Shown: positions 4,219-27,209, counted from the first letter of the stretch. The stretch: DNA of 64,000 nt from a virus (IMGVR_UViG_3300037420_001376:8329-72328), one strand, 5' to 3'. Program-made: numbers and translations. Notes: generated by a model not told the origin, from the letters alone.

Positions 4219-4221
4219 ATA

Positions 4222-8100: not shown

Positions 8101-11100
8101 GTATGCTGATATGCCTCTTCCGGTGTTGCATCCCCAGTGGCAACTAATGCCGCGCTGTCCTGAACTAATTGACGAATAGTTTTTGAAAGCTCTCGACCGT
8201 TTTTGGAGTTCTGGTCGATTCTGCCATTTTGTAAAACAAGAGCGGCACCCGTTTTATCTAAAGCATCAACGAGATTTGCTTGATAACCAATAGCTTGCTC
8301 TACGTCATCTTGATACTTAGCTAATGCGTCATCATTAGGGAGTTTGCCAAGATTTTCAAGAGACTTAATAAAGTTTTGTGCTCGCTGATCAGCATCAATC
8401 GTTTGATCACTAAAGTCACGAATGGCATCGGTCAACTTCTTGACTTGGCTGCCACCATTTTCAAATTGATCACGCATTTGCTTAAGCGTATCAATTAATG
8501 CTTGCGGCGCTTTCTTGTCAGCCAGCATTTTCAGGAATTCTGCGAACTGATCCGCGCTTCCCTGAATTGCATCTGCCGCAGACTTAGCGTCAACGTCTAG
8601 TTTTGCCAAAGCCTCTTCAACTGGACTGACAGCCTTACTAACTTCATCCGTTGATGGAGGCTTAATGTTTGGCGTAATGCTTGGCAGTGTATTTGGATCA
8701 GCCTTTTTATTAGTGGTGTCAATACCATGCTGATTAAGTGTATTAATTAAATTCTGAAGAGAGGTCGGATTTAACTTAACGTCTGGCTTAAGAACTAAAT
8801 TGGTGCCATGCAAATCAAGTACATCTTGCCCTATAGCGGCTTCAATCTGCCTCTCTAAATCAGCCTGAGACTGCGGTGTGGCATCTTTAAATGTAATCGG
8901 AACAGCAACGCCACCATTAGCAATTGCCTGCAAACTAATAAGCAGTGTTCCAAGTGCTTGTGTTAGTTGATCTTTTCCTTCAATCTGAACTGCAATCTTA
9001 ATCGGCTCAGGAACAATACCTTCATAATTCTTGATAAATTCCCGAAGTTGATCGACAGAAATTCCAAGTTGTTTGGCAACATCCGGTAACTGTGCATTCA
9101 GTTGAGCAAACATTTCATCAACGTTGCCACCACTAGAAGCAAACGTTAAGAAATTCTGGGACAACTCCCCAAAGACGCCAATGAGATTACGGCCAGTTTG
9201 TGTGTTCTCATTGAACTTATTATTTACATTATCCCAAACGTTATTCAGGCCATCGCCGGAAGAGATAGCTTCAGAAACTTTTTGAGACAGATTCTGGATA
9301 GCATCTGCATAATTTGATGCAGCTTCCAAAGCGTCTGTCTTCAGGAACCCTAGCGCCTGTAAAACTAACTTAAGGCCATCAAGTTTAGTTGTTGCGTCTC
9401 CTGCAGCATTTTTGATTTTATCAATGCCTGCAGCTAATTGAATACCACCGGTGCCTAATTCTTGGGCAGATTGTGCAGCTTGGTTAAATTGATCACGTAA
9501 TGCATCTACCTGTGCTTTTGCCTGATCAGCACCAGCACCGGCATCATAAAGTCTTTTAACTAAATCATTATACGCATCTGCAGAACCAGATATCGCTACG
9601 CGCAATTCATTCTGAGTTACGCCAGCGGATTTAAAATTATTTAGTGCTTGTTGTGCGTCAGCAGCAGATTTTTGAATAGCGTTTAATTGATTCGACTCAC
9701 CACCGAGAAAACCGAATAATTCTTGTGACCAACTTTTACCAGCATCATTGGTAAAGTTTGTTCTGATAACATCGCCAATATGAGATATAATTCCTGGCAT
9801 TGCCTCAGATTTAGCTTGTAAATCCGAGAACATTGTGTCAAGACTCTGAGTGATCGCGTCCATAACCGTATGTCCGGCCACGCCACGATCATCGATAAAC
9901 GCATTTCTAATATCTGTTCCCGCCTGCTTTATATGAGCAGCGGAATCATTTATTGCGTCTAAACCTTTTTTAACCGTCTTATTTCGTTCGTCCCACGCTA
10001 ACCAACCAGCGCCAACTACAAGTAAAACCCCAGCAATAGGACCAGCTAATCCAGCAAGAGTGCTGATAACCCCCGACAAAGACGTACGGACGTTTGAAAT
10101 AGATTGAGATGCTTTTTTGCCAACAGGCCCAAAATTATCAAGAACACTAAGAACTTTAAGTAATGCAGTATCTAAACCACTAATAATTTTACCAGCGTTT
10201 CTCAAGGTTAAGAAAACGCCAACAAAAGTCTTGATGGTATTAATGCCAACCATGGCAATATGATCGAATATCTTCCATGCAGCAATAATGCCAAGCAGCC
10301 TACCAAGAACTTCATCAAGTCCTAGCGCGTGCTTTAGTTCAGCCATTGCGCTAATAAACTGCATTAAACTTTGAAGCGCTGGCAAAAACTCTGCAGAAAA
10401 TGCATCGGCAGTTGACTTGATAACCGTGTAGACATTTTTCATCATGTCTACAAAATCATGGAAGGTGTCTTTGAAATCTTGTAAACGGTTGCCACCGGGA
10501 TCAGACATTTCCCGAACAGCGTTACCGATATCTCGTAAGGTTCCAGCCGCCGCTGATTTTTGAACGGACTGATTGAACCGTTCCATTGAATCGGCAAATC
10601 GAGCGAGGAAATCCCCACCCGTGTTGGTTCTAAATACTGTGAGTAGACTCCACACAGCCTTTGTTAAGCTGGTGAATCCAGAAATTAAATCCTTAACTCC
10701 CTGGCGGGCATCCTGCATCCACTTAAGTAAATTACCATTTTGCCGATTAACATTAGCCCATTGTGCAAATTGATTAATAAGATTTGGTAACCCGCCACTC
10801 AAATCCCTAATAAAGCTACTACCGACAGCAGCGATATCTCGCAGTCCATCTAAAGCAGGGCGAATAGCCTTTGCTAAAGTTTCAATAGTTCCAGCGGTAT
10901 TAGTGAAAAGCGTGGATACATCTTTTTGCGTTTGGCCTGCCTGCGCAAAACCAACCAACGCATCTTTGGCGTCACGTAAGGCGGCAACAACTTTTGTCGC
11001 GCCACCTTCCCAAATTGGGAAATACGTTTGGCCCAGTGCTTTAATTTGATCTGCTGCACCGGCAAAAGCTGTGCCTCGCAATGATTCCTGAAGTTCTTTC

Positions 11101-12305
11101 CACTTCGGAATTAAACTGTCAATAGCATCTGCAACCGGTCGCAAAGATTTTGGAAGCTTGTAGTAAGCCTGCAGCGCTTTGATAGGATCGTCAGAAAATA
11201 CGTCTTTAAATTTATCTTTTAATCCAGCGAACACCGGGACCAGCGATGCAGCCACCGCGCCTATGCTGGCGAAGACTCCCGGCAGCACTAGCAGGCCGCC
11301 GCTCAACTGACGCACGCCGTCTGCTAAGCCCAGCAATAGGTTAGAGGTACCCGAGAGCGCTTTAGATAGAACTGATAAGGCTAAAGGTAAAGTTTGACTG
11401 ATAGTTAACGCCAAACCCTTAAGAATAGGTGTCGGGATTCTCTTCAAAAATTGGAATTTAGATATGATTCCATCGACGCCAGACTTAATTAAGGCAACAC
11501 CGGTAATGAATCCACGTGTTGCCTTGGCGAAATCAGCTATGGGCTGAAAACCTCTGTTGAAAGCATCAAAAGCCCTAGGTATTTTTTCTACAGTTCTGAA
11601 TACTCGCTCGGCACCTACTGCAAATCTCTCATTGGCTAAAATCATTTTACGAATAGGGCCAGTATTCGCAAATTGATTAACCCACTTGGTAATAATTCCA
11701 GTTCTAGATATACGACCTATTGCTAAACCTGCAGACCCAAGAACTGCTAATTTCGTGGCGAATCTATTAATATTTTGTGTCCATAGCGGCATGTCTCTAA
11801 CAGCTTCTTTAATACCCAAGAAGTTAGAGACATAACGCCTCAAAATATTATTATATACGCCTGCGCCAGACAGAGCTTTGTTAAAGCGAAGCAGTCCATT
11901 GGTTGGACCGTCAAACCTCACTTTCTGCATTAAATCTAAAACACGATACGCTCTATTTAATGGTTGATACCACGAGTTAGCGCGTTCAATAACAGATGAT
12001 AGTCTGTTAAAGTTATCGTATAAATCCCTAACGTCTCGTGAGAAACGAGTTACAGATTTATTGGCGGCAAAAACTCCGCTGGCAAATCCTCTGGTCGCCT
12101 TAGTTGTACGATCTATAGATTTAGCTGTGTGTTCAAAAGTATTGTCAGTTGACTTAAGCGTCTTTTCAATGCGTCCAAGACGCTTATTCATTTCATCAAA
12201 TTGACGAGAAAGCTTAACTAAGGTTTGTAGAAGTTTTCCTGAAGCCCTGTCTTCTAGGTCAATGCGAATAGAGCCATGAGCGGTACCTAAATTATCATTA
12301 GGCAT
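5124..12305 (-). CDS. Tape measure protein with C-terminal Rpf-like transglycosylase and Zn-peptidase-like motifs, 2393 aa
   Basis: Longest ORF; Ala/Gly-rich helical; follows tail assembly chaperones; N-terminal LGTAHGSIRID motif. Confidence 0.95.
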   Translation of the reverse strand: MPNDNLGTAHGSIRIDLEDRASGKLLQTLVKLSRQFDEMNKRLGRIEKTLKSTDNTFEHTAKSIDRTTKATRGFASGVFAANKSVTRFSRDVRDLYDNFNRLSSVIERANSWYQPLNRAYRVLDLMQKVRFDGPTNGLLRFNKALSGAGVYNNILRRYVSNFLGIKEAVRDMPLWTQNINRFATKLAVLGSAGLAIGRISRTGIITKWVNQFANTGPIRKMILANERFAVGAERVFRTVEKIPRAFDAFNRGFQPIADFAKATRGFITGVALIKSGVDGIISKFQFLKRIPTPILKGLALTISQTLPLALSVLSKALSGTSNLLLGLADGVRQLSGGLLVLPGVFASIGAVAASLVPVFAGLKDKFKDVFSDDPIKALQAYYKLPKSLRPVADAIDSLIPKWKELQESLRGTAFAGAADQIKALGQTYFPIWEGGATKVVAALRDAKDALVGFAQAGQTQKDVSTLFTNTAGTIETLAKAIRPALDGLRDIAAVGSSFIRDLSGGLPNLINQFAQWANVNRQNGNLLKWMQDARQGVKDLISGFTSLTKAVWSLLTVFRTNTGGDFLARFADSMERFNQSVQKSAAAGTLRDIGNAVREMSDPGGNRLQDFKDTFHDFVDMMKNVYTVIKSTADAFSAEFLPALQSLMQFISAMAELKHALGLDEVLGRLLGIIAAWKIFDHIAMVGINTIKTFVGVFLTLRNAGKIISGLDTALLKVLSVLDNFGPVGKKASQSISNVRTSLSGVISTLAGLAGPIAGVLLVVGAGWLAWDERNKTVKKGLDAINDSAAHIKQAGTDIRNAFIDDRGVAGHTVMDAITQSLDTMFSDLQAKSEAMPGIISHIGDVIRTNFTNDAGKSWSQELFGFLGGESNQLNAIQKSAADAQQALNNFKSAGVTQNELRVAISGSADAYNDLVKRLYDAGAGADQAKAQVDALRDQFNQAAQSAQELGTGGIQLAAGIDKIKNAAGDATTKLDGLKLVLQALGFLKTDALEAASNYADAIQNLSQKVSEAISSGDGLNNVWDNVNNKFNENTQTGRNLIGVFGELSQNFLTFASSGGNVDEMFAQLNAQLPDVAKQLGISVDQLREFIKNYEGIVPEPIKIAVQIEGKDQLTQALGTLLISLQAIANGGVAVPITFKDATPQSQADLERQIEAAIGQDVLDLHGTNLVLKPDVKLNPTSLQNLINTLNQHGIDTTNKKADPNTLPSITPNIKPPSTDEVSKAVSPVEEALAKLDVDAKSAADAIQGSADQFAEFLKMLADKKAPQALIDTLKQMRDQFENGGSQVKKLTDAIRDFSDQTIDADQRAQNFIKSLENLGKLPNDDALAKYQDDVEQAIGYQANLVDALDKTGAALVLQNGRIDQNSKNGRELSKTIRQLVQDSAALVATGDATPEEAYQHTSDVLKELLNQFNITDPNLQQQIINTYFPADAFQQGLKDAMSSADPRKTIEDIFHQDPAKLDSVLNLLSTNEDILNKIVGPDGKLHIPSVFDPNMPGVQPHGWWSNSGLPGTGPGAGAGLPLPAPQPLPPPTAPAAPNAAEIAGKLSDDQLTQIFASHPDIAQILGPYTEKAAEQGQSFSEAFAQGIKDGDPAVKRAIEELAELAGDGLGHSPAKYGPLSGRGWTLYRGKTFSKSWAQGITSEAGSVKGAVSGVAGEAAVATGSYDPQAGGMDNFLKQLKDLSSFGQHILDAFTSIADIAINVAQLANTFSGGRLAPKQYIPDPTADRRRGNRLAPFNPQGTPSNLRMPSGQPTAAGGQIPLVQKPDGTWTSSNPEWAKLIARESGGVANRKQEITDSNTGGNEASGLFQIAKGTWASNGGTKYAPTAGEATPQQQAEIATKIFLDQGVDPWGGRENEDLLRQGLLGATSASQAPGPVRPGVLHDTGGKVSQAASINAANLIEQLFPQISNIGGARPDSMPYHPEGRALDIMIPGGSTMGGANPQGKLLGDQIKAWALANADKLGLEDTIWQDFWQPPGGQGNSLGRASQGPTAGHFDHVHLTFKPGFQPDNLPPGALTSPTETAQNTPVEVKVVDQNGNPITTVPAGTTGVTEVRDQNGNLLTSIPPTASMSPNNSLSTTNDLLTDIDGNLAPLPQALQDIGVPDPRNIKSQDEAVTALQQIDSLIADQNNNNTPQSKAIIDSLGSMRSQIMGDYGLTEGPNAIDQASSVISNIAGVAGDIFKVVNSAIEAVGATKDITDTLIRYPSNTEDIFRMIDDFQKYIQLGADIAGAVSSIANAIGSAIPSAGGADFGGTSAAKAAVQGVAQIAGIIQSALETVNAVIDLGQEAYRIIGTYVGDFLGFLVGGQDSLRGNIKFLLDTQTNELLSYSQDNPLDKRTHEGVGGSRNTDSRNQLARDIYVFGGPGQDPRDNTRQMMLQIKMNQMTAPTGQ

Positions 12306-13289: not shown

Positions 13290-14132
13290 TTACGAAGTGG
13301 TAACCGTAATCGGCGGGCAAGGATCAGACTGTTCCGAATCAATAATTGTAGAGACTCGGAATTTATACTGAGTTCCTGTAGTAAGAGAAGCTGCCGTGCC
13401 ATTTGCCACAGTGGGATTGGTCATTGCCGAAGTCCACGTAGTAAACGGAGAAACAGATTTCTCAACTAAATAAGCGTCTGCACCAACAACCGGGCTCCAC
13501 GATAAAGCAACAGAAGTTGAGGTAACTGTACCTGCAGCTAAATTAAGTGGAGAGGGAATCGGGTTGGGATCAGGCGTTAAAGTAAGAGCCTCTGTAGTTT
13601 CACGACGGAAAATCGAATACAGAAGATCATTGGTGTCATCCAATAACGGATAACCAACGCCAGTCACAGACGACGTTTGGAATTCGCCATCCGTAAAGTT
13701 AGCAGTAATATCACCGTTCGCTCGGCAACGATAAATGCGAACCAGAACGTCGCCACCAGAATCAGAAATAATCTTGCCATCAATACGGAACCAGGGGCGT
13801 GCCTGAGTAGCCTTTTTCTGAAGTTCAATTTCACGATTCGGCTCAAGTCCGCGCTCAATGACAGAACCACCGGTAAACACCGCCCATGCAGCAATTGGTA
13901 AACCACCGGATTCCAAATCCCAGTTCACCATAGAACCGCGACCACGAGTAGTGATGAGCTTGTCATCGCCTCGCAGTTCTGCGAATTCCTCAGCCTCAGT
14001 AAAGTTTAAAGTCTGAATGTAGGGAAGATCGACAGAAGCTGTTCCCAAAACCATTCCAAGAGCATCAGTGTACTGCGTGAGTTTTACGTCACGCACGCCA
14101 TAAGGTAAACCGTCAGTGACCGGTGCAGACAT
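13290..14132 (-). CDS. Major tail protein with C-terminal fibronectin type III domain, 280 aa
   Basis: LPYGVRDVKL and LRGDD motifs; C-terminal P.NL....TSTSVALSW...Y...L..GTQYKFRV FN3 pattern. Confidence 0.9.
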   Translation of the reverse strand: MSAPVTDGLPYGVRDVKLTQYTDALGMVLGTASVDLPYIQTLNFTEAEEFAELRGDDKLITTRGRGSMVNWDLESGGLPIAAWAVFTGGSVIERGLEPNREIELQKKATQARPWFRIDGKIISDSGGDVLVRIYRCRANGDITANFTDGEFQTSSVTGVGYPLLDDTNDLLYSIFRRETTEALTLTPDPNPIPSPLNLAAGTVTSTSVALSWSPVVGADAYLVEKSVSPFTTWTSAMTNPTVANGTAASLTTGTQYKFRVSTIIDSEQSDPCPPITVTTS

Positions 14133-16468: not shown

Positions 16469-17035
16469 TTAGCTCTCGCTTAAATTGATTTCCTCACCGG
16501 CATCGCGTTTATCCTGCAAAGCAACAGCTAGGCGTTCTTGTAATTTTGCTTTATCGTCGTCAGAAGAGTATTCAACTCCCTCTTCATCTAAGCGAGCCTT
16601 AAGCTTATCTTTTGTCTGCGACCGAGCTAAAACGAATTCGGCAATATCTTCATCGATATCATCACCATCATCACTGCGGCCATAATCAGGATCACGCTGA
16701 GCGCTTAAATCAGAACCAGAATGATGCAAACCCATTCCCACGGGTTCAACAATTACGCCATTATCCCGATCATAAACTCGCCCAGTATCCTTATCTAAAA
16801 CTGTACCGGGAAGTGGAGCACCACCTACGTCATAAACCGCCTTGTCACGAACGTCTGAATCGTAGAAAGAATTAACGGAAGGCTGTCCTGCCTCTTCCCC
16901 AGGGGCAGGCGTAGCATTTCCATCAACACCAAAACGACGTTCGTTTGCGGGAATTAAATATCCTCGACCGCGAGAGATAAGATATTCTTTATCTTCTGCG
17001 CTAAGCGGTGAATCTAAGTCAACCTTGCGGCCCAT
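16469..17035 (-). CDS. Acidic hypothetical protein with C-terminal HeH-like motif, 188 aa
   Basis: TKDKLKARLDEEGVEYSSDDDKAKLQERL resembles a HeH/LEM-like bihelical motif; first gene after capsid. Confidence 0.65.
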   Translation of the reverse strand: MGRKVDLDSPLSAEDKEYLISRGRGYLIPANERRFGVDGNATPAPGEEAGQPSVNSFYDSDVRDKAVYDVGGAPLPGTVLDKDTGRVYDRDNGVIVEPVGMGLHHSGSDLSAQRDPDYGRSDDGDDIDEDIAEFVLARSQTKDKLKARLDEEGVEYSSDDDKAKLQERLAVALQDKRDAGEEINLSES

Positions 17036-17106: not shown

Positions 17107-18321
17107 TTAACCTGCAAGGAATCCGGTGCCACGCTTGTACTGCGTGGGAATATCGTAAGTACCAGAAGCTTTAATCTGCATAATTGCAGCACCGCCGCGC
17201 TGACGAATACCCGAACCAAAGCTGCGGGCATAAAAACCGTCAACGAGAGGATAGCGCTGGTAGTTACCAGGAATAATGCGAAGACCCTGCATTGCCGGAT
17301 TGGCGTGCTGGCGTAAACCAATCGGGTTACCGAGATTAAATCGGCCACCATAACCAATACCAACAAGATAACCGGGAGGAATATAATCCTCTTCAACAAT
17401 ATTCCAGAAACCGTACGAGCCGATTACCGCTAATCCACCAAAAGTAGGTGCAGGCTGATTTCCTAATAAACCTTCGGCATTAGGCAGCATCATTGCTGGC
17501 TGAGTGGGCGAAGGAATAAAGTCATATCCTGCAGTCTGACCATTGTTATTCACAACACCACGACGGAACTGGCGAATAACGTCTGTCTCTGCTTTATTTG
17601 CCAAAAGCAAGAAACTGGTTCCGGCCTGCGGTGAATAACCATGCTCTGCAATAAGCTCCATTAAATCTTCAACATCAGAAGAGTCAACGGTGCTATTGCC
17701 AGAAACAACGTAATGGCTGTGATTTTCGGTAAAGGTGTTGTTCTTAAAGCGTGGCGGTGCAACACCCTCACCGTTATACAGCGGGTAAACGTTGTACGCC
17801 TGGTTACGAATATTGGCCCGACGAGTACGATTGTCAAAAAGGGCTTCCATAACCTTTTTGAAAATAAGTCGCTTATCGGCCCAGAGAATGCTTTCGTGAA
17901 TTGCCTCAACCTGGCGGGCGTCGGCTTCAGCTAAAAACATCCATGTATAGGCAGTACGCTTGTCGTAGTGACGTAAATCGTAGCCCATTTGGAAAACTTC
18001 AATCGGCAAACCACTACCACGAGGAATGCCCATTTCGGTGGCTTCCTCGAACGTGGTTTCGCCAATTTGCACCACAGGCTCAACCGGTGTAGTAACCGGA
18101 TAAGTCAAAAGTGCAATTAGGTCATCCATTGCCTCATTGTAAATCGCAATGGATTCTGCGAAAGAATTCCACAGAGCATTTAAATCAATACCGTCAGCGG
18201 TAACCGTAACCAAATCGCCTTGGGTAAGAATACCTTCTTGGCGAACCGGTGCAGTACCACCGAAAATAGGACCAACGGGAATGCCCTTGACGAACAATCC
18301 GTTTTTCTTATATGCCATCAT
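17107..18321 (-). CDS. Major capsid protein (about 404 aa; ORF track extends to 18372)
   Basis: DGIDLNALW and FEEATEMGIP motifs; GAAGGGA RBS before ATGATG at 18321/18318; followed by hairpin. Confidence 0.88.
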   Translation of the reverse strand: MMAYKKNGLFVKGIPVGPIFGGTAPVRQEGILTQGDLVTVTADGIDLNALWNSFAESIAIYNEAMDDLIALLTYPVTTPVEPVVQIGETTFEEATEMGIPRGSGLPIEVFQMGYDLRHYDKRTAYTWMFLAEADARQVEAIHESILWADKRLIFKKVMEALFDNRTRRANIRNQAYNVYPLYNGEGVAPPRFKNNTFTENHSHYVVSGNSTVDSSDVEDLMELIAEHGYSPQAGTSFLLLANKAETDVIRQFRRGVVNNNGQTAGYDFIPSPTQPAMMLPNAEGLLGNQPAPTFGGLAVIGSYGFWNIVEEDYIPPGYLVGIGYGGRFNLGNPIGLRQHANPAMQGLRIIPGNYQRYPLVDGFYARSFGSGIRQRGGAAIMQIKASGTYDIPTQYKRGTGFLAG

Positions 18322-18349
18322 GGCATTCCCTTCCAATCTGACTTTAAAA

Positions 18350-19042
18350 TTACGGAGTCGCGTCAAGAACATTAACGATTAAACGATCTTTTTCTGCGGT
18401 ATGTCCAACATAAACACCGTCAGAACCCTTTGTTGCGGTAACGGAACCGTCAGCATGTGCGTAATAATTCTGACCTGCAACCGGAGTGGTTGCACCAGCG
18501 GTTACCGTTGCACCGGTTCCTGCAGCTAAAGTAAATCCATCGGCCACTTGCGCCGAAAAATTAGGTGCAGTTCCAGTAACAGTGACATCGGCATCAACCA
18601 TATTGTCGTCAACGGCAACAATTGCTGCCTCAACAGCAGTATTAGTTGCGTTAAACGCAATATTGCCGGTAACTTTTCCGTTTACCGTTAAAGTGAAGCT
18701 GCCAGAACCAACGGTTACAACAATCGCGTAAGTACCGTCAGCTGGATTTGCAACAAAGTTAACGATTTCACCATGTTTGCCAACGTCACATGGATCACCA
18801 GATTGGTTATTAATTCCACCGTCTAAAAGGTTTCCATGAATATCTGCGCCAACCGGCACAATCATTAAACCTTTAATTCCGGTTTGACCACTTCCGATTA
18901 CAACTGCACCATCAGAATTTAATCCGACACCGAGAACCACATTGGCTTCAGTATCTAAATCAATATCTTCGGCCAGAACACCACGAAAGTTGCCCATGTA
19001 GCCGTCGTATTTATCCCAACGCGGCTTAGTCGCCAGAGCCAT
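18350..19042 (-). CDS. Capsid decoration-like protein with inserted beta-rich domain, 230 aa
   Basis: Between scaffold and capsid; RWDKYDG...FRG N-terminus; internal GSFTLTVNGKVTGNIAFNATNTAVEAAI segment. Confidence 0.6.
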   Translation of the reverse strand: MALATKPRWDKYDGYMGNFRGVLAEDIDLDTEANVVLGVGLNSDGAVVIGSGQTGIKGLMIVPVGADIHGNLLDGGINNQSGDPCDVGKHGEIVNFVANPADGTYAIVVTVGSGSFTLTVNGKVTGNIAFNATNTAVEAAIVAVDDNMVDADVTVTGTAPNFSAQVADGFTLAAGTGATVTAGATTPVAGQNYYAHADGSVTATKGSDGVYVGHTAEKDRLIVNVLDATP

Positions 19043-19119
19043 GTGAATCCTCCATTAGAGTTGTTCGGCAGCAATAGTATCAATCTTGTGTCCTGAAACT
19101 CGGGAGGACACGCGGCGTG

Positions 19120-19884
19120 TCACCCTAAAGCTGCACGTCCAGAAGCAATCACCGGCCACTTGGCTTCCAGTTCCTTGCGGCGTTGGGCTGCAGTGGGATT
19201 GGTCGGTGCCGGTCCTGGGGGATTTCCGGTAGAACGGCGTTGACGCGATGGTGGCGGATTATCGTCAATCGTGGGCTTTTTCACCAAATATGGATAATCT
19301 TTAGCAATACGAGAAAGTTCATTTTCAATACCACTAGCTGTTGCTCTTCCGGCTTCTAAATCAACCTCAAGATCATAACCACCGGCGTCTAATTTAGAAA
19401 TCACATCATCGACATTATGAAATTGAAGATTCTCATTTCCCTGAATTGCGTTCACCACTGCAAGGCGCTTAATAACTTGATCCATACGATCAATTGTTTC
19501 CTGAGCCTTAGTTAAATCCTCAGTTAAGGCTTCTTCGCGACCAAGGCTTTTCTTGCGCTCGTCCTCTTCTTTAGTCTGATATCCTTGAAGCGTCTGAGTA
19601 AGCTCAGTATTTTTCTGAGTTAATTGAGCAACCTGCGTAGTTAATTGCGCAAATTGTTCTGGCGTAATTTCTTTTGTACCATCCCCGCCACCTGAACTTG
19701 TGGCACTATCGTCAGGATCACCAGAAGGTTTATTTTCGGCGGGAGTAGAACCAGCGGGCTCGGCTGAGGTTCCACCGAAAATCGGCAAAGCTGCTTTAGC
19801 TGCTTCTAAAGAATTAATCTTTACAGAAAAATCAAAACTATTTGCAGGTGTTAATCCGCTGTATTTGGTTTGGAAGGGCATCAT
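19120..19884 (-). CDS. Scaffolding protein (start uncertain, 19884-19926)
   Basis: Acidic/Gly linker, coiled-coil middle, Pro-rich C-terminus; upstream of capsid. Confidence 0.8.
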   Translation of the reverse strand: MMPFQTKYSGLTPANSFDFSVKINSLEAAKAALPIFGGTSAEPAGSTPAENKPSGDPDDSATSSGGGDGTKEITPEQFAQLTTQVAQLTQKNTELTQTLQGYQTKEEDERKKSLGREEALTEDLTKAQETIDRMDQVIKRLAVVNAIQGNENLQFHNVDDVISKLDAGGYDLEVDLEAGRATASGIENELSRIAKDYPYLVKKPTIDDNPPPSRQRRSTGNPPGPAPTNPTAAQRRKELEAKWPVIASGRAALG

Positions 19885-19915
19885 TTCATGTTCTTTCATG
19901 GGCTGGGTAGAGCGT

Positions 19916-20848
19916 TTACGCTGCATTGCTAATCCAATCGTTATAGTACCCGGCTGTCAAGTTTCTAGTGAACACATCAAGAGATTCGACCTGCGGTGTC
20001 ACAAAGCACCGGCATTGCGGGTGGGGTTTGGGAGGTACGTTGTCAACGTCAAACAATTGTTCTTTGTAACGATCACAAATTTCTATTACGCCATCTTCAA
20101 TTTCATGCGTTTGTGAAGTGTGCCAAACCATGCCTTGAACCCATGGACGATCTTGTGCAAGTGCAACACTAGTAGCATGAAAAGCATTATTAAGCTCGGT
20201 GCGACCGAGACGAAGGGCAGCATAACTGACCCCACCAGGGGTATTTGGCCTAATTGATCTTCTAACTTTTTCTGCAATTTCTTTCGCACTAGCGCCCCTA
20301 ACTATTCCAGAATTAATTTCTCTTTGCACCCACGTATTTGCCATACGCCGGGTTCGATAAACTCTAGTAGATAATGGCTGATTTGATTTTTCGAGGCGCG
20401 ACACCAAGTTTGCCACTGATAATTCTGCCTGCACGTATTGGGATTGAATAAAGCCCTCAACGTTCCCTCTAGAGTTTTTAGCTGATTCAGCGAAAGCTCT
20501 GGAAAGAAAGTCTCTATCAGTTTCTGAGAAGGCAGTAACGGCTGCTCTAGCGGATTCTTTAGACCCGGCAGTAATGAGGGGGATTTGTTTTTTGAAGAGG
20601 TCATTGAGAACCTCGTTGACTATTTTCATCACTAGTCGCAATTGCGCAGTGCGGACACCCGATGAAAAAGTTGAGTTTGTGCTCAAAGCAGAGACTTCTT
20701 GTGCTGCATCTTGCGCTGCTTGGATTAATGCGGTACGAACCTTTGTATCGTGCCGGGACTGTATCATCAGATATTTCGTAAGCCATCTTTTCCTCAAAGT
20801 TTCAAAATCATCATTTAAACCCCCATCTAACGGAGTCGGCCTAGTCAC
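19916..20848 (-). CDS. MuF-like head morphogenesis protein, 310 aa
   Basis: LRLGRTE and C-terminal ICD...PHPQCRC motifs. Confidence 0.85.
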   Translation of the reverse strand: MTRPTPLDGGLNDDFETLRKRWLTKYLMIQSRHDTKVRTALIQAAQDAAQEVSALSTNSTFSSGVRTAQLRLVMKIVNEVLNDLFKKQIPLITAGSKESARAAVTAFSETDRDFLSRAFAESAKNSRGNVEGFIQSQYVQAELSVANLVSRLEKSNQPLSTRVYRTRRMANTWVQREINSGIVRGASAKEIAEKVRRSIRPNTPGGVSYAALRLGRTELNNAFHATSVALAQDRPWVQGMVWHTSQTHEIEDGVIEICDRYKEQLFDVDNVPPKPHPQCRCFVTPQVESLDVFTRNLTAGYYNDWISNAA

Positions 20849-21281
20849 CCAGTAACCTCCACTCCGTTACGTCACCCCTGCTGACCAGGAAATACCGCCA
20901 ACCCAGCGCCGGATTGGGCCAACCCACCAGATCACGCGGGCTCGGCCAGGGGTAGCCGTTGGGATGGGTATGATAAATACCTAAAATCTCAGTTTGCTTT
21001 TTTCCATAAATTTCGTCTAACACCCATTCAGTGTCTTTTGGGTGCATATAAAAATTCATGCGCGGTTCTAAATGTGAATTTAAAACACCGATCACTTCAA
21101 ATTCAGACGTAATGAATCCGCATCGTTCTTCTGAATGTCTAAAGCACTCGTCCAATAATTCAGAACGAGTGCTTTCAGGCAAAGGATTATGAGAGTAGAA
21201 AAGCTGTTCGGCTTGTCTACCCTTAGATGAAATTAAATAATTACTATGTCCAGGGTGCGCTGGATTATTAAGGTCCAACAT
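20841..21281 (-). CDS. JAB/MPN (JAMM) metalloprotease, 146 aa
   Basis: Upstream E (EERCG) plus exact H-x-H-x7-S-x2-D motif (HTHPNGYPWPSPRD). Confidence 0.85.
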   Translation of the reverse strand: MLDLNNPAHPGHSNYLISSKGRQAEQLFYSHNPLPESTRSELLDECFRHSEERCGFITSEFEVIGVLNSHLEPRMNFYMHPKDTEWVLDEIYGKKQTEILGIYHTHPNGYPWPSPRDLVGWPNPALGWRYFLVSRGDVTEWRLLGD

Positions 21282-21293
21282 GATGCTCCGCGT

Positions 21294-21869
21294 CTACTTA
21301 CCACGTCTTTGTGGCCTAACTACTTTTTTACCAGCAATGGCTCGCATTCTCGTGTCGTATTTTTTCACCCCTTTTCGAGTCTGAGTAAGCGGTGTTTTAT
21401 GCTTCCCACGACGTAAAATAATCGTAGGACCGGCTCCGCGAGAACTACCAAGGCGAGCCTGGTGTCTACCGACATTTGCTCGAATTGTGGGATTTGTAAT
21501 CGTAACGTTTTCTTTGAAATATTTCCTGACTTTACCTCGGGTAGTTCCATAGGGCATCGCCTTATTTCCAGCTTTAGCTAATGCTTTATCGATTGCGCCT
21601 TTACGGTTGGTGTTTTCGACCCGAACGTATCCACCAAACACAAGGCGTTTGCCAGTTCCAGGCAAAATTGAGCCGGTATTAAATCCTGCAGTTTGGCTCC
21701 TTTTATTGGCTCGAAGATATGGCACAGTGTTTTTTGTAAAACCATGCTTACCAACCCCACGAGTTACAGGATTACTACCATATAATCTTTTAGACTTTCT
21801 TTTACGTGCTCTACGAGCCTTTGCTAGCGCTGCCGCTCTAGCAGGTGTAAAGACATAGGCTCTAGTCAT
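21294..21869 (-). CDS. Highly basic protein, array member, type A motif, 191 aa
   Basis: YVFTPARAAALAKARRARKRK N-terminus. Confidence 0.8.
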   Translation of the reverse strand: MTRAYVFTPARAAALAKARRARKRKSKRLYGSNPVTRGVGKHGFTKNTVPYLRANKRSQTAGFNTGSILPGTGKRLVFGGYVRVENTNRKGAIDKALAKAGNKAMPYGTTRGKVRKYFKENVTITNPTIRANVGRHQARLGSSRGAGPTIILRRGKHKTPLTQTRKGVKKYDTRMRAIAGKKVVRPQRRGK

Positions 21870-21871
21870 GA

Positions 21872-22240
21872 TTACCGCACTCTACTACGAATTCTTGTTC
21901 CTGTGTGCCTACCAGAGATGTGTGTTGCTCGCCCACGACCGTAGTAACGGAGCGGTTTATGATTTGAACGCAAAGCCACGCCGGGGGCATTTGGATCGAC
22001 CCGTGGTCCTTTAGATAAATAACCTTTGACCGCTTTATAATGTTTAGGAACTAATTGAGGATTGCGTGCATAATTATTTGCATGATGAACTAAAGCACCT
22101 ACGGCAACCGTACCCGCCACGGAGCCAACAGCTTTTAATCCACCAATAACAGCGCGTTTACGCCTTTTTCGTGCGCTCGCTTTTTGTGCTCGTGCTAAAG
22201 CTGCGCGACGTGCAGGGGTCATGCGATAGCGTTTAGCCAT
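21872..22240 (-). CDS. Highly basic protein, array member, type A motif, 122 aa
   Basis: YRMTPARRAALARAQKASARKR followed by Gly/Ala/Val hydrophobic stretch. Confidence 0.8.
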   Translation of the reverse strand: MAKRYRMTPARRAALARAQKASARKRRKRAVIGGLKAVGSVAGTVAVGALVHHANNYARNPQLVPKHYKAVKGYLSKGPRVDPNAPGVALRSNHKPLRYYGRGRATHISGRHTGTRIRSRVR

Positions 22241-22241
22241 A

Positions 22242-23036
22242 TTATTCTCCGAAGTCTTTAATCCACTGCTCTAAAGCTTTAGCCTCAAGAGTTTGTTTTG
22301 GTTGGCCCTTGCGCGTAACACCTGCACGAGAATTAACTGGTTTAATGGGTGGCTTTTTACCTTTTAATTTCTTACCGGCATATACGCGAGTCACCGAACC
22401 GTCAGCGATCATGGAATGCAAAATGCCAGAAGCATCAACATCTTCGCCAGTAATTTTTCCTTTAGCCTGCGCATGTGCGTCTACTGCACGAGAAGCGGCA
22501 TTGCCGGTAACTCGCTTTCCATAAACCAAACCTTTAACGCCTTTAGGTAAAAATTTATCAACGTTATATGGCCGATCAGAACCGGAAATAAGTTTATTGG
22601 TAACTTCTACATCTCGTTGTTGACGTGGGAAAGCATTATTGCGCGATGGATCAACAATATTGGGATTAACTTTTCCAAGGTCAATGCGCGTCATGGTTTT
22701 TGCGCCCTTGGTAGCAGCGGTTTTCTTGGTAGGCTTTTTAATTAAATTTCCACCAATAGCATTGGCTAAACGAACTCGTTCTTTAGAACCCGGTTGCACT
22801 GCGGCTTTCCAACGAACCGAAGTTGCCTGAATACTGGATCTATTTTTATATCCATAGATCGCTGCGGCTCCGACACCAGCAATGGTTGCGCCGACAATTG
22901 CACCTTTAATCGCTGAATTGCGGCGGCCCTTGCGTTTTCTCGCGCTAATTGCCTGCGCTCGTCTAAGCGCGACAGCACGCTTTTGTGTATATCTATATTG
23001 GCCTCGCCGCACATTTCGCCCTCGTTTCTTAGCCAT
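22242..23036 (-). CDS. Highly basic protein, array member, type A motif, 264 aa
   Basis: YRYTQKRAVALRRAQAISARKR plus hydrophobic stretch. Confidence 0.8.
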   Translation of the reverse strand: MAKKRGRNVRRGQYRYTQKRAVALRRAQAISARKRKGRRNSAIKGAIVGATIAGVGAAAIYGYKNRSSIQATSVRWKAAVQPGSKERVRLANAIGGNLIKKPTKKTAATKGAKTMTRIDLGKVNPNIVDPSRNNAFPRQQRDVEVTNKLISGSDRPYNVDKFLPKGVKGLVYGKRVTGNAASRAVDAHAQAKGKITGEDVDASGILHSMIADGSVTRVYAGKKLKGKKPPIKPVNSRAGVTRKGQPKQTLEAKALEQWIKDFGE

Positions 23037-23704
23037 TATCGCCTCTTTAAGTTTCTCAAGTAAACATCTAAAGGTTGACCATTGACTGTTGCCACACTTC
23101 TTGGTCGTTTCGGAACGAATTTTTTATCTTTGTAGTCATCACTTAATCGAATATCTCGACTGGGCAAACTAACCGATTTTCCTTTAGCAAAAGTATATCC
23201 CGGAAAAATCTCTTTTCCACCAAGTGTTTTAATTGGTGTTTCTTTAGGTAATCGTTTACCACCAGAACCATATCCACGAGTGGATTCTTTTCTATACTTT
23301 GGTGCAAATGGATTCTCAAAATGCTGACTGGCTAAAAGTCTATTGGTAGTTGTAGTGCCCAAAACCTGCTTCATGGTTACCGGAGAGTGATTATAAGAAA
23401 GCCTTGTTTTAGTTGCACCTTTAGCACGAATTAAAGAAGCACCAGCTCTATTAACCGCAAATCGTGTACCACTAGGCAACTGTTTTCCTGTGACACTAGA
23501 AACGTTGGCGTGTGTGGTTTTAGAAAAACTAGAGCCCGAAAGACGATGGCGGGCAACAACACCTGCTGTCGTTAAAGCGCCAACACTGACGGCACCAACG
23601 CCAATAGCAATTCTGCGATTACGCTTCTTGCGTGCTTGAACTAAATTCCTACGCGAAGCAACACGCTGTCTTGCAGTAGTTCTTTTACGTCTACGACTAG
23701 CCAC
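23036..23704 (-). CDS. Highly basic protein, array member, type B motif, 222 aa
   Basis: TARQRVASRRNLVQARKKR plus hydrophobic stretch. Confidence 0.8.
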   Translation of the reverse strand: MASRRRKRTTARQRVASRRNLVQARKKRNRRIAIGVGAVSVGALTTAGVVARHRLSGSSFSKTTHANVSSVTGKQLPSGTRFAVNRAGASLIRAKGATKTRLSYNHSPVTMKQVLGTTTTNRLLASQHFENPFAPKYRKESTRGYGSGGKRLPKETPIKTLGGKEIFPGYTFAKGKSVSLPSRDIRLSDDYKDKKFVPKRPRSVATVNGQPLDVYLRNLKRR

Positions 23705-24146
23705 GTCTTGCTCGCTTTCGTCTTTGTGTTCTCGGGCTCATTCCATCATATTTAGAACGAATCTTTTTCTCATAACCTGGCACCAATCCGGCTCTGCGCT
23801 TTGCATCATATAAACCACGCGGCCTACGCACATACGTTGCCTCACCAGAAGAATTAACTTTAAATGCACCTTTTCGCGCAGGAATTGGCCGTTTAACAGT
23901 ACGAACTTTGGTGACATTTCTGCCCGGTGGCAAAGCTAATTGATGGGTGGGATGAAAAGCAGATGGGCGATATGGCCTGCGTAAATGATTAACGTAGCTT
24001 CTACCGGCTACACCCAAAACCGTTGCGGCACCAATGGTTCCAACAATACCTGCGCCAATGGCAATTCTTTTATTTCTTTTACGGCGCGCAGCAATCAAGT
24101 TGCGCCGTGACGCAACTCGCTGTTTTGCACTACGCCGTTTAGCCAT
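23697..24146 (-). CDS. Highly basic protein, array member, type B motif, 149 aa
   Basis: SAKQRVASRRNLIAARRKR plus hydrophobic stretch. Confidence 0.8.
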   Translation of the reverse strand: MAKRRSAKQRVASRRNLIAARRKRNKRIAIGAGIVGTIGAATVLGVAGRSYVNHLRRPYRPSAFHPTHQLALPPGRNVTKVRTVKRPIPARKGAFKVNSSGEATYVRRPRGLYDAKRRAGLVPGYEKKIRSKYDGMSPRTQRRKRARRG

Positions 24147-24367
24147 TAACGTCTACGTCTGCGCTTTCTGTTCTCAATATCATTAATCTCTTTAAGATTA
24201 ACGATCATACCCGCCACGCCTAAAGTGGCTTTATTTCCAGCCCTACGAACACCTTTAGCAATCCAATAACCAACCTGATTTTTGGCGCTGGTGTGTTTCT
24301 TTCGCGCAGAAATCCTTTGGGCCTTTAAAATGGATTGCCTTCGTTTAGGCGTTAAACGATAGGCCAT
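24146..24367 (-). CDS. Highly basic protein, array member, type A motif, 73 aa
   Basis: YRLTPKRRQSILKAQRISARKK; TAATG coupling at both ends. Confidence 0.75.
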   Translation of the reverse strand: MAYRLTPKRRQSILKAQRISARKKHTSAKNQVGYWIAKGVRRAGNKATLGVAGMIVNLKEINDIENRKRRRRR

Positions 24368-24726
24368 TATCGCCTCTGCTTTGCATAAGCGCTATAAACT
24401 TGAGCGTGGGTTAAGTGCTTTACTTTCTTTTTAGATGTTTTGCGCTTCTTTGGTCGTAAAACCCCAACAGCAACGTTGTGTCTACCTACGCGACCACGAA
24501 CGGCAACATGTTGAGAGCTTCTATGAGCACTAATTCTTTTAGTTTTCTTTCTAGACTTAGAATGAGAAACTTGTGCTCGATAACCTTTTTTATGCGCTAA
24601 ATATGCAGCACCACCTGCTAACGCAACACCGGTGGCTACTCCTGCAGCTATACGACGTCTGCGTCGTTTCTTTCGGGCTTTTTCTAGATTTCTCCTAGAA
24701 GCAGCTTTTTGCCTAGCGGTCGCCAT
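24367..24726 (-). CDS. Highly basic protein, array member, type B motif, 119 aa
   Basis: TARQKAASRRNLEKARKKR; 38 K/R against 1 acidic residue by hand count. Confidence 0.8.
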   Translation of the reverse strand: MATARQKAASRRNLEKARKKRRRRRIAAGVATGVALAGGAAYLAHKKGYRAQVSHSKSRKKTKRISAHRSSQHVAVRGRVGRHNVAVGVLRPKKRKTSKKKVKHLTHAQVYSAYAKQRR

Positions 24727-24727
24727 A

Positions 24728-25165
24728 TTAATATCGCGTTCTTACAGAAACCGATCCATGACGGCTTGCAACAAACACACGATTATGCTTGGTAGCACCG
24801 CGACTACGCGCGACGGGGCGTGTATTTGAATAGTGCACTCTGCGCTTTTTATCTTGCTTTAAATGTGCGGCATAGTCGTTATAGAACTTTTTAGAATTAG
24901 CGCTGTACTTTTTAGCAGCGGCTTGGCCTTTTTTATGTTTGCCATAAGCGTGTGCAACATGGGCTGCGCCATAAGCGACTAATGCAGCGCCAGCAACATA
25001 ATTTCCAGCATTGCGCCGTAAATGTCCTTTTACGCCACCACCAGAAATTTTACGATTGGCAGCGGCTAATTTGCCTTTACCTTTTCCACGGCGTTTTCGT
25101 GCAGAAGCGGCTTGAGCTTTTTTCAACGCCGCTCTACGAGCAGGCGTCATTCGATGTGCTGCCAT
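24728..25165 (-). CDS. Highly basic protein, array member, type A motif, 145 aa
   Basis: HRMTPARRAALKKAQAASARKR plus hydrophobic stretch. Confidence 0.8.
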   Translation of the reverse strand: MAAHRMTPARRAALKKAQAASARKRRGKGKGKLAAANRKISGGGVKGHLRRNAGNYVAGAALVAYGAAHVAHAYGKHKKGQAAAKKYSANSKKFYNDYAAHLKQDKKRRVHYSNTRPVARSRGATKHNRVFVASRHGSVSVRTRY

Positions 25166-25332
25166 TATCGCCGCCTAACAGTAAACCTCGGTCCACCACC
25201 AATAAATAATAAGTACACCCCATACACACACAGCAATATCCCAGCAATGAGCAGAATAATATGCAATACGTAGGGCATTACGACTAAAAAAGCGATAAGT
25301 AAACAGGCGATTCCAGCAAGTAACGCTCCCAT
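25165..25332 (-). CDS. Small two-TM membrane protein, 55 aa (below ORF-track cutoff)
   Basis: Hand translation MGALLAGIACLLIAFLVVMPYVLHIILLIAGILLCVYGVYLLFIGGGPRFTVRRR; TAATG coupling at both ends. Confidence 0.75.
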   Translation of the reverse strand: MGALLAGIACLLIAFLVVMPYVLHIILLIAGILLCVYGVYLLFIGGGPRFTVRRR

Positions 25333-25517
25333 TAGCGTCTACCTTTCTTTCCAGAATGCTTGGATTCGGGCAGGCGGCGATACCTTATTTTTTTGCCGCC
25401 TTTAGTGCGATGGGCCATGCGATGCGCGAATTCTTTTTTGTTCGCGAAAGCCCATTTCCATTGCTTTTTCGAGAAGAAGCCAGTTTTGCGACCTTTACGC
25501 TTTTTCTTTTTTGCCAC
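25332..25517 (-). CDS. Small basic protein, 61 aa
   Basis: FFSKKQWKWAFA motif; first gene after portal. Confidence 0.75.
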   Translation of the reverse strand: MAKKKKRKGRKTGFFSKKQWKWAFANKKEFAHRMAHRTKGGKKIRYRRLPESKHSGKKGRR

Positions 25518-25556: not shown

Positions 25557-27209
25557 CTACGCGGTCACACCCAAATCAACGGTTTGCTCATCCGGCGTGT
25601 TGGGCACGGGATTGCCCTGGTCATCGACGCTTTGGCCCTGATCTTGGCCACCTGCGCCCAACGCGAACGGATCTAGCGCTGCGGCCTGGGCAGCACTTTG
25701 AGATACCAACATTTCTGCTAAATCATCATCGGTTAACGGATTTCCCAAAGCATCATGAGTTGGCCACTTCCATCCTAATTCTCTTAGCTTTTGAATCATC
25801 ATTACTGTGAGAATCATATTGGATGAATATAAAAGTTGTGTCTCGGTGATTTCAGTATCACGGTTTTTCGGCATGGGATCATCAAACACACACACCACGG
25901 TAAGCTCTGCCATTTTTGCCGCATCGCCAAACATTTCTGGCTCATAGGCGGGCAACCATTGCGTGGTAATATCGAAATGCATCTGATCTAAAATCATGAG
26001 CATTTCAAGTTCTAGCTCTTCATTAGACGCCAACAAAGGCATCATTTGAAGTTGTAGCGATATTCCGCTTTCAGCAACCGCCACATCAACGCGACCAATC
26101 GCAATTTCAGGCGTACCTGAAGATTCGCTAATACCTTTTTCATCAATCCAATTCATGTGTTCTTGGAATGGGGAAACCGAATCCACACCAGTAACTTTGT
26201 CAAATTTCTGTTCTTGACCAATTTCAATGACTTGTTTCGGCCCAATATTCCAATCGGTGGGATTGCCATTATCATCTTTGGGTCTACCGGCAGTGGTGAC
26301 ATACATGCCCAAACCCTGAAAAACAATGGTGCAATCTTCATCCGTTAAAGATTGATTGATCGCATAAAGGAGTGTTTCAAGCCCCGTAAGTATAGAGTGT
26401 CCCCAAGTAGAATTTTGAGGCGCTCTTGTTCTCCATTTATAGATGGGAAGATTTGTGATGGGCACAGAATCAGACCCAATGAATTCCGGATCTTCGTCTT
26501 GATCACTATTGACAACTCGTTCTTGGTCTTCACGAGCTTTAACACTGCGATCATCCCATTTCCCTAATTCATAAAACTTCAGTTCGCTAGTGACGCCAGT
26601 GACCGTGCCGGTTTCATCATAGACTTTGCGAAAAGTACGAACTTTAGCCACTTGCTTATCGGGCTTATCCGGTTCACGGAAGTCCTGAACTTTTTCAACA
26701 ATATGATAACCACTTACTTCTTTGGCATCATGGGGAGACTCATTGATTTCAAAGATAAATCGGGGATCGAGTTCTTCGATACAAATTCGTTTTCCAGAAG
26801 TTTTATTAGGTTTGGCGTATACATAAAAGGCTGCATCTCCACGGACGAGGCCCCATCGTTTGTTTGACTCAAATTTACTCCTAATGCCTTCGCGCTTATA
26901 CGTATCTGCCCACCAAGCATCAACTGCTAATTGTGCAGCTTCATCACCAGTAGCATCAACAAACCATTGAAGATTTTTACCAAGAAAACGAGTAGTCGCC
27001 TCTACAATCTTTTTAGCATTGGGAACAATCAGGGGAACTTGATCTTCACCACGTAAATTCAGCGCAAGATTTATAGTAGAGTTAATATATAAATCTTCGT
27101 AATAATCGTACGCCTGAATGCGCTTTAAATCCCACGGGTCAACAATATTATCGTCGCCAGTTGTCAAAAAATCTAAAGCGGCTTCATATTGCTTATTATT
27201 GTAGGGCAT
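25557..27209 (-). CDS. Portal protein, 550 aa
   Basis: Follows terminase; RIQAYDYYEDLY and AESGISL motifs. Confidence 0.9.
   Translation of the reverse strand: MPYNNKQYEAALDFLTTGDDNIVDPWDLKRIQAYDYYEDLYINSTINLALNLRGEDQVPLIVPNAKKIVEATTRFLGKNLQWFVDATGDEAAQLAVDAWWADTYKREGIRSKFESNKRWGLVRGDAAFYVYAKPNKTSGKRICIEELDPRFIFEINESPHDAKEVSGYHIVEKVQDFREPDKPDKQVAKVRTFRKVYDETGTVTGVTSELKFYELGKWDDRSVKAREDQERVVNSDQDEDPEFIGSDSVPITNLPIYKWRTRAPQNSTWGHSILTGLETLLYAINQSLTDEDCTIVFQGLGMYVTTAGRPKDDNGNPTDWNIGPKQVIEIGQEQKFDKVTGVDSVSPFQEHMNWIDEKGISESSGTPEIAIGRVDVAVAESGISLQLQMMPLLASNEELELEMLMILDQMHFDITTQWLPAYEPEMFGDAAKMAELTVVCVFDDPMPKNRDTEITETQLLYSSNMILTVMMIQKLRELGWKWPTHDALGNPLTDDDLAEMLVSQSAAQAAALDPFALGAGGQDQGQSVDDQGNPVPNTPDEQTVDLGVTA

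Follow-up and report, generated by a model that had tools for sequence, protein, structure and literature searches.

A shared Gly-Gly leader on the scaffolding and major capsid proteins of a Patience-like phage, with a head-module JAB/JAMM protein as its candidate protease

Proteolysis during head maturation is a textbook step in the assembly of tailed phages, and few protease families are known for it. The question of what might carry out this step is raised by the head genes at positions 17,107 to 21,281 of IMGVR_UViG_3300037420_001376:8329-72328, a stretch of viral DNA whose full 64,000 nucleotides are referred to here as the window, and which derives from a virus record of 72,328 bp with a CheckV completeness of 100%. 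In this region the scaffolding protein and the major capsid protein (MCP) carry the same hexapeptide, PIFGGT, near their N-termini, and a putative stand-alone JAB/JAMM peptidase is encoded in the same module. A first-pass annotation, made from the sequence alone, had proposed that this JAB protein removes a leader from both head proteins by cutting directly after the glycine pair. Are such leaders removed, at which bond, and by which enzyme?

Among all six-frame open reading frames (ORFs) of at least 40 aa in the 64 kb window, PIFGGT occurs exactly twice, at nucleotides 19768-19785 in the scaffold (AALPIFGG|TSAEP, the bar marking the proposed cut) and at 18253-18270 in the MCP (PVGPIFGG|TAPVR, in the ORF 17107-18372), which bears out the hexapeptide reported in the first pass; by our own arithmetic, assuming uniform composition, about 0.002 common hexamers are expected between proteins of 268 and 421 residues. 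The scaffold, a homologue of gp21 of mycobacteriophage Patience, lies at 19120..19926 on the minus strand (Pfam Phage_scaffold, 41.2 bits; phrog_4866, E 6e-35), and its leader ending in PIFGG is placed at 19771..19926 (minus strand); the start codon is uncertain, and the choice of Met start sets the length of this leader at 37-52 residues. For the MCP, of Patience-like HK97 fold (phrog_3990, E 1.5e-173; PDB 8GIU, the Patience capsid, E 6e-245), the true start is likely the ATG at 18321, with a GGAAGGGA ribosome-binding site in front, so revised to 17107..18321 (minus strand) the protein carries a leader of 22 residues at 18256..18321 (minus strand), likewise ending in PIFGG. Numbered from the ATG at 19926, the scaffold is predicted to be cut between Gly52 and Thr53, and the mature MCP is predicted to begin at Thr23, with TAPVRQEG.

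The relative that informs these predictions most directly is Patience (cluster U), whose head module shares approximately 74% DNA identity with the window region; Barnyard and Konstantine (cluster H) and several Gordonia phages are more distant kin. Published data on processing in virions are those for Patience, and for the window phage processing is predicted by homology. The Patience sequences read ...LPIFGG34|T35 in gp21 and ...PIFGG19|T20 in the MCP, gp23. By mass spectrometry, Pope et al. 2014 (PMC4324244) found the N-terminal-most gp21 peptides to begin at residue 35, after a glycine, an end that is neither tryptic nor a translation start and that they left unexplained, and they placed gp21 among the N-terminally acetylated proteins of Patience. 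The 2.4 Å capsid model of Podgorski et al. 2025 (PMC11965321) begins at Thr20, because residues 1-19 are without density, and contacts of Thr20, Glu26 and Asp40 are described there. Both N-termini, at bonds homologous to those in the window, match the predicted cuts exactly, directly after PIFGG, and neither paper ties together the two N-termini, the common motif and the JAB gene. An earlier published capsid cut at 82/83 (PMC4324244) is contradicted by the mature capsid, in which residues 20-82 are modelled (PMC11965321), and we treat it as superseded; tryptic coverage of gp23 R24-R98, the stretch from which that cut had been deduced, is impossible, because no Lys or Arg lies within it. We consider it highly probable that in Patience-type phages, including this one, both head proteins are cut after the Gly-Gly of a common leader.

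Related sites recur across the family. In a reference set of 12 phages, covering Mycobacterium clusters U, H, R and D as well as phages of Gordonia, Nocardia, Micrococcus, Microbacterium and Arthrobacter, scaffold and MCP agree in most members on a form of the site that is particular to the phage, the match being least clear in Nocardia P3.1, Krampus and Wollypog. PIFGG|T is the version in the window and in Patience; others are WPIFGG|S and SLGGG|T in Barnyard, IFGA|E in Apeppi, PFGG|E in Send513, GL(A)LSG-HD in PBI1, DIVGA|D in Kurnik, and KFFAFGG|DGG in Suzy, where ten residues are identical between scaffold and MCP. When 12 MCPs (44-87% identity) are aligned, the Gly at P2, the second residue before the cut, is invariant and the rest of the N-terminus variable; across 22 scaffold leaders P2 Gly is again invariant and P5 Pro nearly so. 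The consensus runs hydrophobic, Pro, hydrophobic, aromatic, Gly, then Gly, Ala or Ser, the cut, and Thr, Ser, Asp or Glu. The pattern of a common site is found again among 80 IMG/VR relatives, for example as IWGG|[DE]G in both proteins of two loci, L087 and L090. A shuffle test for a common 8-mer in the MCP leader and the scaffold N-terminus was significant for many loci; being underpowered for short motifs in low-complexity scaffolds, it was not used to call leaders present or absent.

Glycine pairs of similar form also occur in the tape measure gene (5124-12305, minus strand), as YVFGG|PGQ 31 residues from the C-terminus (window 5208-5219) and as ADFGG|TSAAK about 140 residues from it (window 5535-5546). 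These motifs could be additional Gly-Gly sites; C-terminal trimming is known for the lambda tape measure protein gpH.

The putative zinc peptidase itself, a JAB/JAMM (MPN+) protein of 146 aa encoded at 20841..21281 on the minus strand, is a homologue of Patience gp19 'protease' (55.8% identity) and the only JAB in the 72,328-bp genome. Its ORF scores 39.1 bits against Pfam Prok-JAB (PF14464; cut-off 25), or 39.2 bits in a whole-genome scan, and from the translation the zinc-site residues are complete, with the catalytic Glu52 at 21126-21128 and the motif H104-T-H106-x7-S114-x2-D117 at 20931..20972 (minus strand). Across 22 homologues with 21-58% identity to the window protein, E52, C54, G55, H104, H106, S114 and D117 do not vary. 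The best Foldseek match to its AlphaFold2 model (pLDDT 88.7) is JAMM1 of P. furiosus (5LD9/5LDA; E 1e-6, TM 0.61-0.69), followed by Cap3 of the cyclic oligonucleotide-based antiphage signalling system (CBASS) and by AMSH-type enzymes; JAMM1, an archaeal enzyme solved with the ubiquitin-like protein SAMP2, is also the closest solved relative by sequence (E 5.5e-14). JAMM1-type enzymes cut SAMPs directly after the C-terminal Gly-Gly. By profile, motif and fold the protein is a true JAMM/MPN+ member (M67-like), and a candidate for zinc-dependent hydrolysis after the C-terminal Gly of a substrate. The complete catalytic site and the overlap with the MuF gene, both noted in the first pass, hold on inspection, the JAB stop overlapping by 8 nt the GTG start of a MuF-like minor head protein of 310 aa (19916..20848, minus strand).

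GenBank records name Patience gp19 and its homologues 'protease', 'metalloprotease', 'capsid maturation protease' or 'JAB/MPN domain protein'. Annotators have given gp19-type genes a head-protease label because of position and domain, with no substrate, site or evidence attached, and in searchable full texts we found annotation-level mentions only of a JAB/JAMM prohead protease, again with no substrate, site or evidence. The Kurnik record annotates a 91-aa ORF in the wrong frame at its JAB; the real gene, a 115-aa JAB with HTHPSGDLVPSDSD, lies in the portal-MuF interval (L014:1483-1830, OR756649 ~13564-13911).

What connects this protein with the leaders is its position, its invariant catalytic residues, its kinship with JAMM1, its divergence, the lack of a conventional competitor and a predicted complex. 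A JAB ORF stands in the head module, in the same gene order, in 55 of the 59 IMG/VR relatives with enough upstream DNA, and JAB and MCP divergence are correlated (Mantel r 0.78, p 0.001, 52 loci). A profile search of the whole 72,328-bp genome returned no match at E<=1 to Peptidase_S78, CLP_protease, Peptidase_S49, Peptidase_S77 or Peptidase_Prp, which confirms for the complete genome the earlier impression that a conventional prohead protease is missing. The complex of the JAB with a 70-residue scaffold leader and Zn, a check that the first pass had suggested, was predicted alongside three controls for the scaffold leader only, and it passes them with an ipSAE of 0.82 against 0.19 for the best control; on calibration, 58 of 80 solved complexes attained the ipSAE mark, as did 2 of 110 mismatched pairs. 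At least 57% of contacts agree between runs, and the pLDDT of the partner is 48 or higher. On the JAB side the predicted interface consists of E52, C54, H104, S114, D117 and strand 75-79, and on the leader side of residues 22-39, that is, a helix and PIFGG|TS, the leader being modelled as a helix with an extended tail that brings the Gly-Gly region to the active site. Because JAMM-ubiquitin complexes have already been solved, this pass may partly reflect memory of the binding mode, and we take the predicted complex as a likeness to JAMM-ubiquitin binding, not as proof that the two proteins bind.

The best single explanation, which we infer with a probability of roughly 0.55, is that the phage JAB is the enzyme that cuts the leaders. 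In the sequence of events that we envisage, scaffold and MCP would be made with a short N-terminal leader ending in Pro, a hydrophobic residue, an aromatic residue, Gly and Gly, followed by the cut and Thr. The JAB, encoded just upstream and probably translationally coupled to MuF, would hold the extended C-terminal tail of the leader as JAMM enzymes hold the Leu-Arg-Gly-Gly of ubiquitin-like proteins, and would hydrolyse the Gly|Thr peptide bond, presumably during or after procapsid assembly, to yield an MCP starting TAPVRQEG and a scaffold starting TSAEP. By analogy with the Staphylococcus phage 80alpha, the leader may have a role in assembly, and the phage may be able to do without the cut.

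Several considerations weigh against assigning the cuts to the JAB. The connection of gp19-type proteins with the observed N-termini is one that we infer, and genes linked in one module diverge together irrespective of what they do. The substrates on which JAMM enzymes are known to act are folded beta-grasp proteins rather than leaders of 20-50 residues, and P1, the residue directly before the cut, varies across the family (Gly, Ala or Ser; rarely Asn, Cys or Phe). Missing density in electron cryomicroscopy (cryo-EM) could by itself be disorder. Most telling are distant relatives in which a JAB is missing and similar sites persist. Four loci of one lineage (L123, L127, L129 and L133) keep YPIMGG|A and IAGG|A sites with only an HExxH protein between portal and scaffold, in the slot that the JAB otherwise holds; at L160, in a genome of 100% completeness, the scaffold bears IWPVAGA|S and the MCP NVAGG|A; and at five more loci (L144, L167, L170, L174 and L176), as at L160, no peptidase is recognisable and yet scaffold and MCP both retain motifs of canonical appearance. 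When 23 JAB-less records were scanned with Prok-JAB, one sub-threshold match was obtained, and the six records of at least 90% completeness (L160 included) gave none. As JAB-less relatives keep similar motifs, a JAB is not required family-wide. The first-pass proposal is upheld in that cleavage after Gly-Gly fits the Patience N-termini; its choice of enzyme is where these points bear.

The near relatives give a more favourable picture. Four of them lack a JAB in the head module, and in two of the four (L093 and L096) the interval from portal to scaffold holds no candidate protease and both MCP and scaffold are leaderless, the MCPs starting MPKGYN and MTSPVYHSG. In the other two (L079 and L089) the MCP keeps a motif, LPM[VQ]GG|A, as does the scaffold, WPILGA|SEDD, and a DUF6527 protein (PF20137) lies exactly in the JAB slot, overlapping the MuF start. 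Ye et al. (bioRxiv 10.1101/2024.11.21.623953) report DUF6527, or BubE, to be a Ser-His protease specific for the C-terminal Gly of bacterial ubiquitin-like proteins, after which it cleaves both peptide and isopeptide bonds; a JAB is often missing from Bub operons that contain BubE. This looks like the replacement of one Gly-specific peptidase by another; against that, the case comprises a single lineage, and DUF6527 turns up widely in phages in other, unrelated settings. No PF20137 gene is present in this genome, nor in Patience, Krampus, RikSengupta, Shrew, Wollypog, L093 or L096.

A further scan, built around distant MCPs, yielded approximately 30 more loci in which the portal-to-MCP interval is complete and a JAB is missing. 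Some of these (among L117-L142) have small HExxH proteins in the slot, of three types and 121-167 aa, with sub-threshold SprT-like scores of 14-19 bits; at several such loci a different, longer common leader appears (..LLxAGDIEGLLxLxRxxFGGxxMM|A), which in L122 and L124 is on the scaffold only. Strict mutual exclusion of slot proteases was considered and rejected, as HExxH type A homologues are also found outside the slot in loci with a JAB or DUF6527, and because of these homologues the displacement reading is weak for the HExxH proteins. Placement varies elsewhere too: the JAB of Shrew lies about 10 kb from its head genes, Krampus-type Microbacterium phages have only sub-threshold JAB-like genes (16-21 bits, HxHx6SxxD), and Wollypog has only a sub-threshold RadC-like gene with an insertion. 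On the co-occurrence of JAB and leaders, which the first pass had offered as a test, the result is divided: the 55 of 59 near relatives and the leaderless pair without a slot protease favour the link, and the motifs of distant JAB-less relatives go some way towards refuting it. The broader claim, that JAB/JAMM proteins are a formerly unrecognised catalytic class of phage-encoded head-maturation protease which recognises a Gly-Gly leader resembling the tail of ubiquitin on scaffold and capsid, and whose slot, in the Patience-like capsid lineage, has been refilled repeatedly by unrelated small peptidases, JAB, DUF6527/BubE or HExxH proteins, or lost together with the leaders, we put forward tentatively, as somewhat short of an even chance.

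The persistence of motifs without a JAB also means that a host protease could serve the whole family, or that an unrecognised protease may be at work, and the alternative to be weighed first is that an actinobacterial enzyme removes the leaders and the JAB has another role. Gly-[Gly/Ala] leader-like motifs remain in JAB-less relatives, complete genomes among them, and there is a precedent in S. aureus phage 80alpha, whose scaffold and capsid share an N-terminal leader that the host protease Prp removes in a dispensable cut (Kizziah et al. 2017, PMC5744158). On the other side, no candidate host enzyme of such specificity can be named, and the phages that grow on M. smegmatis differ in their sites, PIFGG|T in clusters U and H, PFGG|E in R and GLSG-HD in D; differing versions on one host fit phage-specific enzymes better. 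The position and catalytic residues of the JAB are moreover kept across MCPs that are as little as ~40% identical to one another, and the predicted JAB-leader complex passes its controls. We judge a host protease unlikely, if the most serious competitor to a phage JAB. A speculative variant would have a host JAMM (Mec+-type) serve the JAB-less phages, the others carrying their own copy.

The first-pass annotation had also raised the possibility that the JAB is a counter-defence protein, which would erase host ubiquitin-like conjugation (Bil, Bub or CBASS Cap2) on virion proteins, its head position being incidental and the leaders being cut otherwise. Its fold is indeed close to Cap3 and to other JAMMs specific for ubiquitin-like proteins, and DUF6527/BubE, which reverses such conjugation, is widespread in phages in varied contexts. 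What fits this suggestion poorly is the fixed head synteny. Accessory counter-defence genes are usually patchy in distribution, yet 55 of 59 near relatives hold the JAB in one fixed slot, and its divergence follows that of the MCP; the proposal also leaves the Gly-Gly cuts without an enzyme in a genome that has no other protease. As an account of this gene, counter-defence appears improbable.

That another phage product makes the cuts, whether MuF, the basic gp18-like protein or autoproteolysis, would draw on the labels in PHROGs and RefSeq, both of which call the MuF-like families and the very basic 191-aa virion protein encoded at 21294..21869 (minus strand; homologue of Patience gp18) 'head maturation protease', and on the presence of MuF in most family members. 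These labels look like annotation carry-over. The basic protein was rejected as a protease: it has no Pfam match, its AlphaFold2 model, of moderate confidence, has a pLDDT of 73 and no Foldseek PDB match at E<=0.001, and its Foldseek hits (best E 0.018, TM at most 0.27) include nothing protease-like. Suzy, with the strongest common leader and a JAB, has no MuF, and the long MuFs of relatives carry toxin domains, not proteases. We hold this explanation to be more doubtful again. As for those domains, the Krampus gp14 MuF (L005:4734-6152) ends in an ADP-ribosyltransferase domain, an 808-aa protein (L144:5027-7450) encoded directly downstream of a MuF has one at its C-terminus, and the L167 MuF (4009-6333) bears a papain-fold glutamine deamidase, all of which fit the known MuF polymorphic-toxin theme. 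The basic protein also contains LVFGG|Y (window 21630-21641; ISFGGY in Patience gp18), which is probably a structural strand, not a cut site, because its Gly pair is only partly conserved (VGAY, VGGY, AGAY).

Least probable is that the leaders stay attached in this phage as a disordered assembly or interaction element, for although missing density can be disorder, the processing data come from a relative and cleavage in 80alpha is dispensable (PMC5744158), the window site is identical to that of Patience, where gp21 has a non-tryptic N-terminus at Thr35 and is among the N-terminally acetylated proteins (PMC4324244).

The remaining head genes complete the setting in which the JAB is found. All lie on the minus strand and are transcribed in the order portal, small basic genes, JAB, MuF, scaffold, minor capsid, MCP. 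The portal gene (25557..27209, minus strand; phrog_64, E 3e-45) marks the upstream limit of the module, and the minor capsid gene, a homologue of Patience gp22 (18350..19042, minus strand), is assigned from phrog_5042 (E 4e-46) and from the annotation of the Patience record. Small, very basic genes run between portal and JAB at 21294-25517, and their Patience homologues are virion proteins (PMC4324244). Patience gp24 is found in virions as its N-terminal half only and in infected cells at full length (PMC4324244), data which suggest a further assembly-linked cut; in its homologue at 16469-17035 we found no [ILVMF]FGG, FGG[TS] or related Gly-Gly pattern among those scanned.

If the JAB does cut these leaders, a protease fold of the ubiquitin system would have been put to use in virion maturation, with a defined and portable Gly-Gly leader as its substrate, and proteolysis at C-terminal glycines of the ubiquitin type would be tied to virus assembly. 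The N-terminus of Patience gp21 and the start of the capsid model at Thr20 would both be explained, and the published 82/83 capsid site corrected. The reading would also supply an annotation rule for well over a hundred actinophage genomes, in which the gene is now called tail protein, metalloprotease, protease or hypothetical. Should the JAB prove not to be the enzyme, the leaders would point to an unknown actinobacterial protease that phages use, in parallel to Prp in Firmicutes.

Set beside known systems, the locus most resembles 80alpha in its substrates, a short N-terminal leader with a common cleavage motif on scaffold and MCP, without an HK97-type delta domain or a conventional prohead protease gene. 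It differs in its Gly-Gly motif, which we take to be distinct from the 80alpha/L27 site, in having no Prp gene in the phage genome, in its actinobacterial hosts, and in that the candidate is a phage JAB and not a host cysteine protease. With the conventional prohead proteases (HK97 gp4/S78, T4 gp21/S77, ClpP-like S14 and S49) it shares the slot between portal and scaffold/MCP, held across relatives by different small putative peptidases, and the N-termini of scaffold and MCP are what it would process; the JAB is without homology to them, and would take off a short leader at one bond, where they break down a delta domain or the scaffold.

The closest parallel for a phage JAB with a predicted part in processing an assembly protein is lambda tail protein K, a JAB and NlpC/P60 protein of the morphogenesis module predicted to process the ubiquitin-like tail assembly protein I after a conserved Gly (Iyer, Burroughs and Aravind 2006, PMC1779556). 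The window JAB matches lambdoid K-like tail-assembly genes at ~33% identity, as well as PHROG 'tail protein' families, and the 'tail protein' label on genes of its type is carry-over; unlike K, it is stand-alone, lies in the head module, and has neither an NlpC/P60 domain nor a ubiquitin-like partner. Finally, against the JAMM proteases of ubiquitin-like proteins (JAMM1-SAMP2 5LDA, Cap3 9ILD, Rpn11, AMSH), the proposed substrate stands apart as an N-terminal leader of 20-50 residues with a linear bond in a precursor, not a beta-grasp fold; no gene for a ubiquitin-like protein was found among the head-module proteins scanned, the neighbours of the JAB are head genes with no E1/E2 gene adjoining, and the proposed leader substrates are not ubiquitin-like domains. 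What the phage protein has in common with these enzymes is the fold, the E...HxHx7Sx2D zinc site and a substrate tail that is predicted to pair with strand 75-79 beside the zinc site; the known members cut directly after a C-terminal Gly-Gly or Gly, which agrees with the position observed in Patience.

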